Shown piece after piece: positions 45,954-50,413 of a DNA stretch of 50,413 nucleotides (positions are counted from its first letter, which is position 1; the number at the start of each line of letters is the position of its first letter). Position numbers and translations under genes: made by a program. The notes under the pieces are model-generated. The model made no database searches and was not told the DNA's origin. It saw only the letters and a list, made by a program, of their open reading frames with translations. Source of the DNA: Candidatus Nomurabacteria bacterium (lineage in GTDB: Bacteria; Patescibacteriota; Minisyncoccia; Phycocordibacterales; SBAW01); the NCBI GenBank assembly GCA_943356415.1, contig CALREW010000003.1, forward strand, positions 1 to 50,413, written 5' to 3'.

Positions 45954-47012
45954 ATGTCTCGTCCCTTGTCAGTCACGTTCAAAATGGAGGAACGGAAGTT
46001 GAAAGCACGATCCCAAGCGGGGCAACAGACCCCGGCACATGTGTTGGCTGCGGCTTGCCTGGCAAAAGCCAGTGCGGTCACCCTTCCCAACGGCTGGAAA
46101 TTTCGCCACTCGCAGAGGGCGGAAGAGCTGCAGCAGGACACGGTGGATTTCCTGACCGGCGTGATGGAGCGGTGGAGAACCGCTTCTCCCACAGAAGAGA
46201 CCTGGGCTCGACGTCACCTGGGGGCCCCGTCCATCTTTGGCCGGGTCAAATTCATCATCGAACAAGATGGCACTGTTCGGGTCATCAGCATCGATGGTGC
46301 GCCCTATATCGGGCTCAGCGCCAAGTACGATCCCGTCTACCGCGGTGCCCTCGAGTACTACAAGGCTGGCGGAGGCCAATGGCCGAACTTCGTTTCTGTC
46401 ACCGGCCCAAACGTCACGAGCGACGACTCCCTATGGGTCAAGACCGTCACGCTGAGCGAAGCCCGCAAAATGGCCGGGCAGCTCTATCTCGTTCGCTTCA
46501 ACCCCAAGACGAATCGCGCGAGGGATGAGGCGGACCTCGTCCATCAATCTGTCGTGCCGGTCGCCCACGTCAACAATCGCTCCTACGGCACGAAGCTCGA
46601 TCTCCTCGAGCCCTTCAAGTGGAGCGATGACGAAGACCCCATCAAGGGCCCGCACGCCATCAAGGGCAGTTGCGGTCGTGGGGGACACTCGGTGTTCTTC
46701 TACGGTCTTGATGCGGGACAGCGGCCGGCGGGGTGCAAGAGTGGCGACTTCGTCGGCGAGGATCGCCTGAAGGCCTTCCTGGACCGCAACGGCGGCAGCG
46801 CGTTCAAGCAGCGCATGTACGGTCCTATGATGCTGTCGCACTGTCCGGGTATGTGCGCGGTCTTCTGCCTGGACTTCGCGTTCGACCGCAAGGCCGGCGC
46901 GTTCGGTAGCTACCGTGCTATCGGTGGCACCTGGCGGGCTCAGCGCTCCATGGTCGTCGTTCCGGGCGAGAAGACCATCATCGGCCCGTTGCGACTTCCG
47001 GGCCGTTCCTGA
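45954..47012 (+). CDS. Hypothetical protein, possibly a degenerate ATP-grasp fold
   Basis: 352-aa GC-rich ORF with AGGGG RBS; weak resemblance to CPR ATP-grasp-like proteins (N.SYG, Q...PM, GG.W.A...GP). Confidence 0.65.
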   Translation: MSRPLSVTFKMEERKLKARSQAGQQTPAHVLAAACLAKASAVTLPNGWKFRHSQRAEELQQDTVDFLTGVMERWRTASPTEETWARRHLGAPSIFGRVKFIIEQDGTVRVISIDGAPYIGLSAKYDPVYRGALEYYKAGGGQWPNFVSVTGPNVTSDDSLWVKTVTLSEARKMAGQLYLVRFNPKTNRARDEADLVHQSVVPVAHVNNRSYGTKLDLLEPFKWSDDEDPIKGPHAIKGSCGRGGHSVFFYGLDAGQRPAGCKSGDFVGEDRLKAFLDRNGGSAFKQRMYGPMMLSHCPGMCAVFCLDFAFDRKAGAFGSYRAIGGTWRAQRSMVVVPGEKTIIGPLRLPGRS

Positions 47013-47041
47013 CCTAGTCCCGGCTTCGGCCGGCACGGGAA

Positions 47042-47070
47042 GCACCGCGCGTACTACGCGCGGTGCCTTT
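47042..47070. terminator. Terminator between convergent genes
   Basis: gcaccgcgcgta-c-tacgcgcggtgc-cttt. Confidence 0.65.
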
Positions 47071-47090
47071 CGTTTCAGTCAGGAGATTTT

Positions 47091-48293
47091 TTACTGCTCC
47101 AGCACTTCGACCAGTGTTTGTTTGAGTGTGGGTACTACGTTGAGATTAAAGAGAAGTGCTTTCTGCGCGATGTCGCCCGTGAGAAGCGCCGCAAGACCTG
47201 AACCCGTTTGCTCAGTAATACTTTTGTTTATGTGACTGACGGTTATCGCACGTAAATCGCGCTCTGCAGTCGTGGCGCCTTGTGTTGCGGTAGCGATGAG
47301 GCCAATGAGCGCGGCATCTGACTCACGAACCACTGCGCCGCCGGAGGAACCTTTTTGCGAAAGTATCGTACCACCAGCAGAGAAGAGATCGGCACCACCG
47401 CCTTCTTTGAAAGTAAAGATTTGGCCAATAGTGGTTCGCGCTGAAGAGATAAAGAGGTTGGTTTGAATCGTCGCGCCATCAAAGAATCCAGCGGGATAGG
47501 CAGCGAGCACCACGGGCACATTTTCAATATTTTCTGCTACCGACATAGAAACGTGCGGGAAAGAAGAGGGAAGTGTATTTGAACCGCTCGGCCCAGTGAT
47601 GCGCAAAAAGGCGAAGTCATTTTCTCCCGTGCCGGTTGGATTTTCAGCAATTATTTTATTAGCATTGTCGGTCATCCACTGTGACGGAAAGTACAGTAGT
47701 TCAGCCTTATACATGGCGCGCGCAGGGGAGCCGCTGCGTATGACGCAGTCGACGTTTCCCGCAGTGGGGTAGTCGCGAAGCAAGAAGAACTGTGCGACGT
47801 GCGCGTTGGTGAGAACGATGCCTCGAGAGTCAATCATGATGCCGCTGCCAGAGATCGGACGCAGGGGACCGCCGCCTGAAGTGACGCAGAGAATATTTAC
47901 GAGGGCACTCCGAACCTTTGTATTAACGTCACCAACAGTCTCTGCTGGTGTTGGTGTTGTTGGAGGGGTTGGTGTGGCGACCACAGGAGTTGAAGGCTCC
48001 GGGTTCTTTGGAGGGAGTGGGGTAGGGGATTCTGGTTTTTTTACAGGAGGAGTAGCCGGGACATCTTTTGGCGCCACTGCAACAGATTTTTTTTCTTCGG
48101 GAGGTTTCGATGTATTGATTGCGTAGGGTGCTGCTTTAGGAAGTGTGACTGAAAGCGTTGTCGGAAAATGTAAAAATGGGGCAGGGGAGACGTGCGGCAG
48201 TTGTGGGTACGAAAATGTGGCGCCTGAAGCAATAATTGCGAGCCCTGTTGCTATCTGGCCGAAGACTGAGGTGATGATGTCGAGAAAAGACAT
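47091..48293 (-). CDS. Trypsin-like (S1) serine protease with Pro-rich stalk
   Basis: GSG, LTNAHVA (His), DFAFL (Asp), GSSGG (Ser); no PDZ domain. Confidence 0.88.
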   Translation of the reverse strand: MSFLDIITSVFGQIATGLAIIASGATFSYPQLPHVSPAPFLHFPTTLSVTLPKAAPYAINTSKPPEEKKSVAVAPKDVPATPPVKKPESPTPLPPKNPEPSTPVVATPTPPTTPTPAETVGDVNTKVRSALVNILCVTSGGGPLRPISGSGIMIDSRGIVLTNAHVAQFFLLRDYPTAGNVDCVIRSGSPARAMYKAELLYFPSQWMTDNANKIIAENPTGTGENDFAFLRITGPSGSNTLPSSFPHVSMSVAENIENVPVVLAAYPAGFFDGATIQTNLFISSARTTIGQIFTFKEGGGADLFSAGGTILSQKGSSGGAVVRESDAALIGLIATATQGATTAERDLRAITVSHINKSITEQTGSGLAALLTGDIAQKALLFNLNVVPTLKQTLVEVLEQ

Positions 48294-48393
48294 ATATCGA
48301 GTATACCTGCGAGAAGGTTTTCGACGAGGTTATCTCAAAGGCATCCAGTATGCTAGGTTGTAGGGCGACGAGCGGGAACTCGTCGTTCAAAAA

Positions 48394-48447
48394 GCGGGAT
48401 TAGCCCGACATGCGTAGCAGTCGAGGTCCCGACCGCAGCGTCGGGAT
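48394..48447 (+). repeat. tRNA-Gly(TCC) 5' decamer followed by a REP-like hairpin element
   Basis: gcgggattag, then cccgac...tcccgac-cgcagc-gtcggga. Confidence 0.55.
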
Positions 48448-48457
48448 TCTCAGAAAA

Positions 48458-48546
48458 GCGGGATTAGTTCTCACCTGGGTAAACCCTAGGTTATGTTAGA
48501 ACATCTAGACAATGGGCCTAGAGTAATAACGAGGACACAGTCCGCA
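48458..48546 (+). pseudogene. tRNA-Gly(TCC)-derived tRNA-like copy with D-loop hairpin insert
   Basis: gcgggattagtt-[ctcacctgggtaaaccctaggtt]-atgttagaacatc, then stem tctag/ctaga and 3' strand agtccgca; no T arm. Confidence 0.6.
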
Positions 48547-48550
48547 AAAT

Positions 48551-48624
48551 GCGGGATTAGTTTAATGGTAGAACATCAGTTTTCCAAACTGAGAGCACCG
48601 GTCCGATTCCGGTATCCCGCACCA
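48551..48624 (+). tRNA. tRNA-Gly(TCC)
   Basis: Acceptor gcgggat/atcccgc plus ACCA; anticodon arm tcagt-ttTCCaa-actga; T-loop TCCGATT. Confidence 0.92.
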
Positions 48625-50146
48625 AAATCTGACTTTCAGAAAATTGACCGACTTTTTCATTGGCGGCGCACAGCGCCGCCCATGCGTTTTGTCCCGACAA
48701 ATCCTCTCCGCTCGGCGCGGTGAGCTGCGCCTCGCGGTTGGCCAAGACGAGGTTCGAGCCAAAGATTTCTTTGGCAGCAACCTTTTTGCTAAAAAGGTTG
48801 CTCTCCCGCGCGATTTTAGGCAGATTCTCTGCCTCTTTTATCCATTCTGTCATCGGTTCGAGCCAGCCAGTCCGCTTTTGTTCAATCCGCGCCGTTTGCT
48901 CTTCCAGCGACTTCTTTTCGGAAAGGAGTTTTGCTTTCTCGGTGCGGTAGATTTCTCGCTCAATATCTTGTTCTAAATAGCCATCGAGAAGTCGCTGGAG
49001 CTTAATTTGAATGGCGCGGATTCTCTCTCCGGATTCCTGAACAAAAGCGGTTGAGGATTGGGCGGCTTCGGTTTTCTCTTTTTCAAGCATAGCGGTTAGT
49101 TCCGCCGCCCAATCCGGTCTCAAAGAAAATTTTTGTAGTAGAGATGATAACTGGCGATCTAGTTCCTCTTGGCGAATACAAGGTTCGGGACATTTCAACT
49201 TTGATTTCTTGGTGCAGTGATAATAGACATATTCGTGAACATTTCCATTTTTCTGTTTCTTCACCTTGTATTCGCCAGTTATCATCATTCCGCATGAGGC
49301 ACAGGAAAGGAGTCCGCAAAAAGGTTGTGGTTCATTTTTTTGCTTGTGGTGCGGACGGCCTCGTTGCTTCAAAACTTCCTGCGCCTTGTCCCAAATTTTC
49401 TTTGAGACCACTGGCTGGTGCTTGCCCTCGTGGATTTCGCCACCATAGCGAAAGTGTCCGTAGTAGAAGGGATTGGAAAGGATAAAAGTAATTCTGTCTC
49501 GGTGGAGTCGCTTGCCGTTTTTTGAATGAATACCGGATTGCGCCAAAAAGTTTGAAATGTCCTCAAGGCGACTTCCATTTTTCGCGTACAGCTCAAACGC
49601 CTTGCGAATGAGTGAGGCGCGCTTCTTGTCCACGATAACAGTTTTCGTTCGCACATCATTGATATATCCGATAGGCGCAAGGCAGGGATATTCGCCGCGC
49701 CTCACTTTTTGGCGCAATCCACGCTTCGTATTTTCGGCAAGCGAATCCACATAGTATTTGCTTTGCCCAAAGGCGATATTGAGCATGAACTTTCCTTGTG
49801 AGGTATTTTCACACCAGAACTGCGGAAATTTCAGGTCCGCAAGTCCACCGCCGTCAAGCAGGTAGATAATCTTTCCACCGTCAACAGAATTGCGCGCCAA
49901 TCTGTCGGGGTGCCAAGCAAGGATAGCGTTTGCATCGCCTCGCTCTATGCGCGAAATCATTTTGTTGAAAATCGGGCGGCCGGTAATTTTGGCGGATTGC
50001 TTTTCAATAAATTCCTCGGCGATGTGCAAACCCTCTTGCCTGGCAAAGGCGCGCAATTCTGTGATCTGCGCTTCAATAGATAAAACCTGCTTGTCCTCCA
50101 CATCGGTGGACTTGCGGGCGTAGAGAAAATATTTGTAGTTGTTCAT
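48557..50146 (-). CDS. Large serine recombinase (resolvase, recombinase and Zn-ribbon domains)
   Basis: YARKS catalytic Ser, SIEAQ, SAK..GRP.F, DRLARN, NPFYYG, CASCG...YYHC...C, coiled coil; the last codons run antisense through tRNA-Gly; alternative start at 50152. Confidence 0.93.
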   Translation of the reverse strand: MNNYKYFLYARKSTDVEDKQVLSIEAQITELRAFARQEGLHIAEEFIEKQSAKITGRPIFNKMISRIERGDANAILAWHPDRLARNSVDGGKIIYLLDGGGLADLKFPQFWCENTSQGKFMLNIAFGQSKYYVDSLAENTKRGLRQKVRRGEYPCLAPIGYINDVRTKTVIVDKKRASLIRKAFELYAKNGSRLEDISNFLAQSGIHSKNGKRLHRDRITFILSNPFYYGHFRYGGEIHEGKHQPVVSKKIWDKAQEVLKQRGRPHHKQKNEPQPFCGLLSCASCGMMITGEYKVKKQKNGNVHEYVYYHCTKKSKLKCPEPCIRQEELDRQLSSLLQKFSLRPDWAAELTAMLEKEKTEAAQSSTAFVQESGERIRAIQIKLQRLLDGYLEQDIEREIYRTEKAKLLSEKKSLEEQTARIEQKRTGWLEPMTEWIKEAENLPKIARESNLFSKKVAAKEIFGSNLVLANREAQLTAPSGEDLSGQNAWAALCAANEKVGQFSESQILVRDTGIGPVLSVWKTDVLPLN

Positions 50147-50340
50147 GCTCATACAATTATTGGGCAAAGCAAATCCGAGACAGAATTAAAATCGCGCGGG
50201 AGGCGAACCTCGTCTTGGCCAACCGCGAGGCGCGGCTCACCGCGCCGAGCGGAGAGGATTTGTCGGGACAAAACGCATGGGCGGCGCTGTGCGCCGCCAA
50301 TGAAAAAGTCGGTCAATTTTCTGAAAGTCAGATTTTGGTG
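48620..50340. mobile_element. Recombinase cassette bounded by 137-bp inverted repeats at the tRNA-Gly 3' end
   Basis: 48620-48756 and 50204-50340 are reverse complements at 136 of 137 positions. Confidence 0.8.
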
Positions 50341-50413
50341 TGTCTTTACAGTTTGGCTCGAACTCATTTTATCAAAAACTGCTGAACGAAACCAGACCAA
50401 GGAAGCCAGCCCC

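Follow-up and report, generated by a model that had tools for sequence, protein, structure and literature searches.

Contig CALREW010000003.1 of a Candidatus Nomurabacteria genome ends with a large serine recombinase (LSR) gene that points at a tRNA-Gly(TCC) gene and is bracketed by a long inverted repeat, and this arrangement is the subject of the present analysis. The window, meaning the whole stretch of 50,413 nucleotides (nt) that was analysed, is this entire contig (C3), one of seven in an assembly of 802,766 bp. Repeats were detected by a repeat search with pairwise alignment, tRNA genes by ARAGORN and Rfam, and protein domains by Pfam; the tRNA is the sole match of the Rfam scan. The two arms of the repeat, R1 beside the tRNA and R1' on the far side of the gene, are 137 nt long, complementary at 136 of 137 positions with one mismatch, and separated by 1447 nt, in agreement with the original prediction, which had been made from the bare sequence. 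The near arm opens with CACCA, the final 5 nt of the tRNA, while TGGTG closes the far arm, and both the ARAGORN model and the arm borders place the limit of identity where it had been predicted, at the tRNA's 3' end. R1' is situated 37–57 nt upstream of the recombinase start and stops 73 nt short of the end of C3, which is a caveat on the repeat. Judged by its length and fidelity, such a repeat in 50 kb cannot arise by chance.

The predicted enzyme belongs to the LSR family by its domain content, having an N-terminal catalytic domain (PF00239 Resolvase, 6.3e-22, residues 7–152) followed by PF07508 Recombinase (4.6e-17, residues 175–262) and PF13408 Zn_ribbon_recom (3.7e-07, residues 275–333). 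At 529–536 amino acids (aa) and with these domains it does not resemble the small serine invertases, which have about 190 aa and a C-terminal helix-turn-helix (HTH). We read ...YARKSTDVEDKQ... near the N terminus as the holder of the putative catalytic serine. A database homologue (P0001, 76% identical) matches the solved chains of SprA and A118 over residues 11–422 and, because its similarity ends at residue 422, no solved structure corresponds by sequence to the final ~105 residues, among them the tail. A scan for sigma-70-like promoters upstream of the gene found no site, the counts being equal to those in shuffled sequence. The open reading frame (ORF) running from 50167 to 48557 terminates in ...ESQILVRDTGIGPVLSVWKTDVLPLN and a stop; the minus strand of R1 encodes its last ~45 conserved codons, and its last 20 codons (48557–48619) are antisense tRNA, as had been foreseen.

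A tblastn search of the genome with the C3 LSR as query yielded eight LSR paralogues (40–72% identity), each converging on a tRNA 3' end, a different one in every case. By this position the element belongs to the integrative islands of tRNA ends, since all eight copies are inserted at a tRNA with the integrase adjoining it. Complete repeats of 131–169 nt occur at six of the eight, with arm identities of 100, 100, 97.8, 85.6, 89.3 and 99.3%, and at these six the arm next to the tRNA shares 3–7 nt with the tRNA end; the layout seen on C3 recurs at five other fully assembled loci of the genome. The remaining two copies are interrupted, one on C7 by a contig end 77 nt into its far arm and the other by a split between C6 and C1. 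Contigs of this assembly overlap by exactly 77 nt, and most contig ends fall inside these repeats; C7:14739–14815, for instance, is the reverse complement of C7:13200–13276 and represents the far arm of a tRNA-Arg(TCT) element, cut at k = 77. Sibling loci are found at C2:96600–107600 (L189), C2:85700–96100 (L188), C1:85100–90000 (L191) and C1:24300–28500 (L190).

A second inverted pair, R2 and R2', is present at four assembled siblings (242, 259, 344 and 383 nt; 93–100% identity), where it abuts the first pair with an overlap of 3–8 nt and brackets 1.8–8 kb of cargo, and a fifth locus, at the end of C1, has a second pair of 303 nt. The order of the parts is therefore tRNA, core, R1, LSR, R1', core', R2, cargo, R2', core and host flank. 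This gives three candidate attachment sites, and in all four assembled elements, as well as in C3 taken together with the end of C2, the middle one (site 2), when reverse-complemented, is the same as the left half of site 3 followed by the core and the right half of site 1. Because of this half-site identity, site 2 corresponds to the attP expected from attL x attR excision, but inverted. Enzymes of the LSR class recombine attP with attB at a 2-nt crossover, of which junction anatomy alone is visible here: the shared cores comprise 3–5 nt (GCAC, CCAC, CTC and CTC at the four siblings, and CACC at the C3/C2 element), and in the tRNA-Gly the core common to attL is formed by the last 4–5 nt (CACC or CACCA). 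R2 includes a T-loop-like TCGAAC box that stands ~4 nt further from the core than does the T loop of the tRNA; a clean dyad of R1 with this box was not found, and our guess, in view of structural work on LSRs, is that the offset reflects the spacing of P-type as against B-type half-sites.

On C3 itself the element runs off the contig, since C3 stops at R2, which is repeated, inverted, at the far end of the element. The last 77 nt of C3 (50337–50413) are identical to the last 77 nt of C2, and the reverse complement of the C2 end carries a direct copy of the core (...AAAGACA followed by CACC...), the attR that the original prediction had suggested looking for and that is also present at the four siblings. 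Further evidence is provided by runs X4 and X8, which come from two studies and contain a related strain with 22 differences over 47096–48394. A contig of depth 32 from these runs continues from the tRNA-Gly ...CACCA into 30 nt that are the reverse complement of C2:219442–219471, the region upstream of a gene at the C2 end, and is an empty site. Because it joins the tRNA-Gly to the C2 flank, the ends of C3 and C2 are the two sides of one insertion, and the C3 cargo must then have the shared 77-mer at its beginning and the reverse complement of this 77-mer at its end. The earlier statement that the attachment-site copies are inverted rather than direct stands in part only: a direct attR exists on C2, backed by the X4/X8 empty site, and the inverted copy is real as a third site, a complete attP.

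We consider it probable that this is a small LSR-driven integrative element, inserted at the exact 3' end of tRNA-Gly(TCC) and equipped with an inverted internal attP. On this interpretation site 1 is attL, site 3 attR with the direct core copy, and site 2 the complete inverted attP, and the 137-nt repeat is the P' arm, of which attL and the internal attP hold one copy each (Table 1). The recombinase gene points at the tRNA, with site 2 separating it from the cargo. Recombination of attL with attR would excise a circle holding two inverted attP regions, in which the recombinase would regain its native tail; in the integrated state the gene runs into antisense tRNA sequence, and the complete tail is left next to the far arm. 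Gene conversion or recombination between the arms would keep them alike. Inversion of the 1.45-kb segment would likewise rejoin gene and tail, and would be rare or transient at most.

Table 1. Features of the recombinase locus in the window (contig C3)
Feature	Coordinates	Strand	Basis or detail
tRNA-Gly(TCC), probable integration target	48551..48624	+	ARAGORN; Rfam RF00005 48551-48621, 70 bits
Large serine recombinase gene (predicted)	48557..50167	-	536 aa from TTG 50167; 529 aa from ATG 50146
R1, tRNA-proximal arm; element side (P' arm) of proposed attL	48620..48756	.	repeat search, alignment
GC-rich hairpin (8 G-C pairs) and T run inside R1, 38 nt past tRNA end	48662..48690	+	pattern scan only
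S1, unique 1447-nt spacer: recombinase body, start codon, short upstream region	48757..50203	.	repeat and ORF data
Decayed inner continuation of far copy	50187..50210	.	88% match to 48795-48818, ~17-24 nt, after 45-nt deletion
R1', far arm; P' half of proposed internal inverted attP (site 2)	50204..50340	.	repeat search, alignment
TGGTG, reverse complement of tRNA-end core, centre of site 2	50336..50340	.	junction comparison
R2 start, second inverted-repeat arm	50337..50413	.	equals last 77 nt of contig C2, same orientation
Native recombinase tail codons, CLYSLARTHFIKNC and TGA	50341..50385	+	in frame with far copy of last 42 codons

The far arm encodes a second ending for the recombinase. Read on the plus strand, an ORF of 56 aa (50215–50385) carries a second copy of the 42 residues that precede the core and ends in ...ESQILVCLYSLARTHFIKNC, with TGA at 50383–50385, as the original prediction had stated. 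Its suggestion that an LY..ART.F-type tail might be the conserved end of homologues is borne out both within this genome and beyond it. Four of the five elements tested in the genome have a tail in frame (LILTFARTYF..., CLFEKVRTHF..., IISFARTFF... and CLYSLARTHF...), the fifth having a far arm with indels and no in-frame tail. In other genomes the tail is in frame at 33 of 39 loci and conforms to x[LI]Y[ND]x[A]RT[YHF]F..N., with a stop after 13–15 codons; the six exceptions comprise one frame-broken and three degenerate copies and two flipped loci that read into a tRNA. Among 32 distinct DNA versions the Arg, Thr and Phe of the tail are invariant as residues, and the codon variation is synonymous (CGA/AGA, ACN with a third-position entropy of 1.34, and TTT/TTC, that is TTY). 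Because residues are fixed while synonymous positions vary, the tail behaves as a translated, selected peptide.

Database proteins carry both kinds of ending. A search of 5.8 billion proteins with the 56-aa far ORF as query, run in 'longer' mode, returned 36 matches, of which 11 were retrieved and eight of these were full-length LSRs: three (P0001, P0002 and P0005) end in the native tail, and five (P0010, P0025, P0026, P0031 and P0032) in antisense T-loop tails of the GIEP type, read from antisense tRNA. Judging by these comparisons, the ..LY..ART.F.. tail is the conserved native C-terminus of this LSR family. Since that C-terminus is encoded across the attP crossover, integration swaps it for antisense-tRNA codons. 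A further proposal, which we hold to be doubtful, is that the activity of the recombinase is set by the state of the DNA, integration stripping the 13–15-aa tail, the inverted internal attP preserving it in frame behind a copy of the final ~45 codons, and inversion or excision rebuilding the full-length enzyme.

Homologues of the recombinase are widespread among related organisms. One is found in 30 of 41 related genomes, with the repeat at seven loci in seven genomes. A wider survey of contigs representing one genome per species identified 506 relatives, and the best 73 of these (60–93% identity) were submitted to locus analysis, a repeat being called complete where at least 50 nt of contig lay beyond both arms. 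These best 73 loci derive from metagenome-assembled genomes (MAGs) labelled Magasanikbacteria, Uhrbacteria, Saccharimonadales, Paceibacteria, Doudnabacteria, Nomurabacteria and others; at 54 of them the gene converges on a tRNA, with 21 anticodon types represented, four are flipped and 15 are without a nearby tRNA. The complete repeat is present in 37 of the 54 convergent loci, and a second pair abuts the first in 18 of the 26 loci that have at least 3 kb of upstream sequence (a denominator counted by hand from the survey table), where element sizes are 3.2–9.1 kb. LSRs that are 86–93% identical to that of C3 are situated at tRNA-Val, -Arg, -Lys and -Leu and, because such similar enzymes occupy different tRNAs, the target is the generic tRNA 3' end. 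LSRs of 84–93% identity (L042, L043, L044, L050, L051 and others) are also found on MAGs labelled outside the Candidate Phyla Radiation (CPR), namely Elusimicrobia, Gammaproteobacteria, Syntrophaceae, Rhizobiaceae and 'archaeon'; these contigs are probably mis-binned CPR, transfer outside the CPR being the alternative.

Comparison of the arms within and between elements reveals how the repeat is maintained. Within elements, the identity of 42 complete pairs has a median of 99.6%, reaching 100% in 21 and at least 97% in 31, while between elements just 127 of 861 pairs align over at least 80 nt, with a median of 77.7%. The figures indicate that both arms of each element evolve in concert and, because identity within elements far exceeds that between them, recombination or conversion presumably takes place between the arms. 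Beyond the inner border of its arm the far copy has decayed by deletions, and this decayed continuation shows it to be a truncated duplicate of the 3' end of the gene.

Cargo genes are varied among the siblings. They include a type I restriction-modification system (HsdR/S/M) accompanied by a T5orf172 protein and an S49 peptidase, two NUDIX proteins and one Ham1 protein associated with nucleotide house-cleaning, and a bAvd protein together with a 1162-aa protein having an FGE-sulfatase-domain fold, with a 10-N gap inside; the latter two are possibly parts of a diversity-generating retroelement. An XRE-type HTH regulator adjoins the internal attP and diverges from the LSR, and a gene of this type, encoding 65–73 aa, is the only recurrent cargo gene, found in six of 22 elements by BLAST clustering and additionally in L101 by eye.

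Several observations weigh against the integrative element that we propose. The cargo and the far arm of the C3 element are absent from the genome bin, and the link between C3 and C2 consists of the shared 77-mer and the empty site of another strain, no contig spanning the element. The attR has 40 extra nt and a second CACCA that are absent in the empty-site strain; at C2:219472–219520 two cores (CACCA and CACC on the reverse complement) enclose the 40 nt, which may be the scar of an earlier element or reflect a deletion in the other strain. Scans for a free form, which covered 2.9 million viral contigs and, with the 56-aa far ORF, metagenome contigs, detected no circular molecule, the viral set containing one distant relative (44% identity) at a contig end, and no recombination directionality factor was found among the cargo genes compared. 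To our knowledge, canonical LSR rules give an internal attP no partner when the element is integrated. Furthermore, the repeat is not universal, since it is lacking over several hundred nt upstream at two convergent loci at least, L047 and L048, and from more distant tRNA-linked homologues.

The inverted arms invite a different account of the internal copy, compatible with the three-site anatomy and concerning only its purpose: the 1.45-kb segment bounded by R1 and R1' might be an active switch, inverted by RecA or by the LSR, that reactivates the recombinase for excision, so that in the flipped state the gene is fused to its native tail and lies downstream of the tRNA in the same direction. 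We regard this as possible, though on balance somewhat unlikely. A recombinase inside a segment bracketed by inverted sites is the expected anatomy of such a switch, the native tail shows coding-sequence conservation and keeps the reading frame of the far arm, arms homogenised within elements imply recombination over evolutionary time, and three full-length database LSRs have the native tail. Flipped contigs do exist (L015, L066, L068, L083, L111, L141 and L154), and three more, L143, L157 and L178, have the LSR contiguous with a native tail (all cut by contig ends); in L015 the arms differ at 4 positions of the outer ~125 nt, which makes a mis-join less likely. Yet every flipped or native-tail contig stops at or near the other arm, none of the four flipped genome loci has a complete repeat within its contig, and convergence on the tRNA is found at all 37 tRNA loci with complete repeats and at eight of eight copies in the genome. 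L141 shares 4272 nt of host flank with L138 at 100% identity while its reversed LSR part reaches only 93.8%, and looks chimeric; the two contigs represent the same host locus in two metagenomes, and the difference could stem from a mis-join at the arm they share or from recombinase segments having been exchanged naturally. The L143 recombinase is without ~125 N-terminal residues; at L143:3580–5196 a tRNA-Gly(CCC) and an arm are followed by an LSR pointing away into the native tail, with arms 98.6% identical, and the locus is perhaps a defunct copy locked in the flipped orientation. The XRE regulator has the same cargo end and orientation in all seven cases located, which argues that the cargo does not flip freely. 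No inversion joint was seen among Logan contigs of four runs aligned on 46000–50413, which break at the arm borders and leave the orientations uncountable. Flipping, if there is any, would be rare or short-lived, and is possible but unproven.

Alternatively, the internal attP could work in its own right, a circle with two inverted attP regions integrating either way or exchanging cassettes with paired inverted targets, or, as a variant, site 2 could act as an architectural third site that aids attL/attR synapsis without a directionality factor. A folded single-strand attP, as in CTX phage, was considered as well. That site 2 is an exact attP, is retained at 18 of the 26 loci whose flank is long enough, and belongs to repeat pairs whose arms are near-identical in both cases is consistent with a working internal attP, and phiC31 cassette exchange makes use of inverted attP pairs; however, the scans that returned no circular form and one relative in the viral set, and an orientation that is strongly biased rather than 50:50, make it an unlikely one. 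The remaining readings fare worse. The far ORF might be an independent small gene for a C-terminal recombinase peptide, such as a regulator, given that 50215–50385 is open and that in 20 of 35 elements the earliest in-frame start codon is situated 3 or 4 codons within the inner repeat boundary; this is very unlikely, as the TTG start is the conserved Leu codon of the recombinase GSNL motif, a Shine-Dalgarno-like sequence occurs in only 7 of 35, ORF lengths range from 26 to 99 aa, and the copy upstream of the boundary has decayed by deletions. Very unlikely, too, is a 1.7-kb insertion sequence with 137-nt terminal inverted repeats and the LSR as transposase, despite long inverted repeats ending in the same pentamer on both sides of the recombinase: the empty site shows that the insert runs past the far arm to the C2 end, every assembled sibling has cargo between the second repeat pair, and serine recombinases acting on two inverted sites produce inversion, not excision. 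Membership of the insertion sequences was accordingly rejected, the repeats not bounding the mobile unit and the DNA continuing into R2 and cargo. A fold-back chimera of assembly or amplification, which the original prediction had named as the result that would undo it, has almost nothing to recommend it beyond the far arm lying 73 nt from the end of C3 and the 77-nt reverse complement of itself in which C7 ends. It is contradicted by the mismatch and the unique 1447-nt spacer, by a layout that is fully internal at four loci of the genome and on 37 contigs of other genomes, and by a contig of run X2 that covers 50175–50340, and the contig breaks are explained by R2 as a true repeat.

The proposed integrative element shares its Pfam family, short core, attL/attR structure, integrase beside attL and empty attB in a related strain with serine-integrase prophages and elements such as phiC31, Bxb1, A118 and SPbeta SprA. 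It departs from them in the extra inverted attP inside the integrated element, in the long, concertedly evolving repeats, in a target at the extreme 3' end of many tRNAs, in the last 13–15 integrase codons lying beyond the crossover point, and in its size, the elements being tiny (3.2–10.8 kb) and almost absent from viral contigs. In the Hin system a serine recombinase gene lies inside an inverted-repeat segment, and Gin inversion exchanges the C-terminus of the Mu tail fibre; the bracketed gene and the would-be exchange of a C-terminus are alike, whereas here the enzyme is of the large integrase type, the repeats are 137 nt as opposed to sites of ~26 bp, and the tail that would be swapped belongs to the recombinase itself. 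Archaeal integrases of the SSV1 type are tyrosine recombinases with attP inside their own coding sequence, the gene being split by integration. The present system is similar in that attP lies within the integrase gene and integration alters it, but the exchange is confined to the last 13–15 codons, and an inverted spare of the tail is retained close by. In the yeast 2-micron circle, FLP, a tyrosine recombinase, acts at two inverted, identical FRT sites that divide the circle into two unique segments, and the predicted excised form would resemble both this plasmid and engineered phiC31 inverted-attP cassettes, although here no free form was seen, and the cassettes are artificial.

The nearest published analogue that we found is the tycheposons of Prochlorococcus. 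According to the accessible part of the report, these are small, site-specific cargo elements that occupy several tRNA genes in a streamlined genome, with the integrase at the tRNA-proximal end, and LSRs are present in 27 of 937, most having tyrosine recombinases (bioRxiv 10.1101/2020.12.28.424599). The small cargo islands and the tRNA-proximal integrase are thus alike, but that part of the source describes no inverted internal att site and no integrase-flanking repeats, and it presents the integrase clades as tRNA-specific, whereas here LSRs of 86–93% identity occupy different tRNAs. Full-text literature searches retrieved no description of the present layout, and no paper joining Patescibacteria with a serine integrase or large serine recombinase. 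Unusual features are an inverted and conserved internal attP together with long, homogenised repeats, a removable tail, pan-tRNA targeting and this density of copies in 0.8 Mb.

The surroundings of the tRNA have features of their own. The GC-rich hairpin occurs in both arms (48662–48680 and 50280–50298), the R1' copy facing the LSR start, and the R1 copy, to go by the pattern match, is a plausible terminator for tRNA-Gly. On the opposite strand these bases code for the recombinase's conserved AALCAA stretch, which places them under dual constraint. Three copies of a unit made up of the tRNA-Gly 5' leader and the first 10 nt of the tRNA (GCGGGATTAG, preceded by a run of A) are found within 48393–48560, upstream of the gene and at its start, and the related strain of runs X4 and X8 is without 47 nt in this leader region, the joint being 48394 to 48442. 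The minus-strand gene just upstream of the tRNA (47091–48293) encodes a trypsin-like serine protease of 400 aa (Trypsin_2, 7e-10) whose N-terminal region is rich in Pro and Thr.

Patescibacteria have tiny genomes, and gene exchange among them is little understood. Here one family of islands of 3–11 kb, situated at eight tRNA ends, accounts for about 40 kb or, by our own arithmetic, ~5% of the genome, and it carries type I restriction, possible diversity-generating retroelement parts and nucleotide house-cleaning enzymes as cargo. Recombinases that are 60–93% identical across many CPR classes point to the spread of this island family, and its repeats explain the frequent breaks of CPR assemblies beside tRNAs. 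An LSR that accepts generic tRNA 3' ends may also interest users of serine-integrase tools. A built-in inverted attP and a tail severed by integration are absent from textbook serine integrases, and if these features regulate activity they would represent a new way of setting the direction of recombination. Should the state of the DNA indeed control the recombinase, it would serve as a means of direction control or reactivation that dispenses with a separate directionality factor, in pan-tRNA-targeting islands that cross the classes of Patescibacteria.

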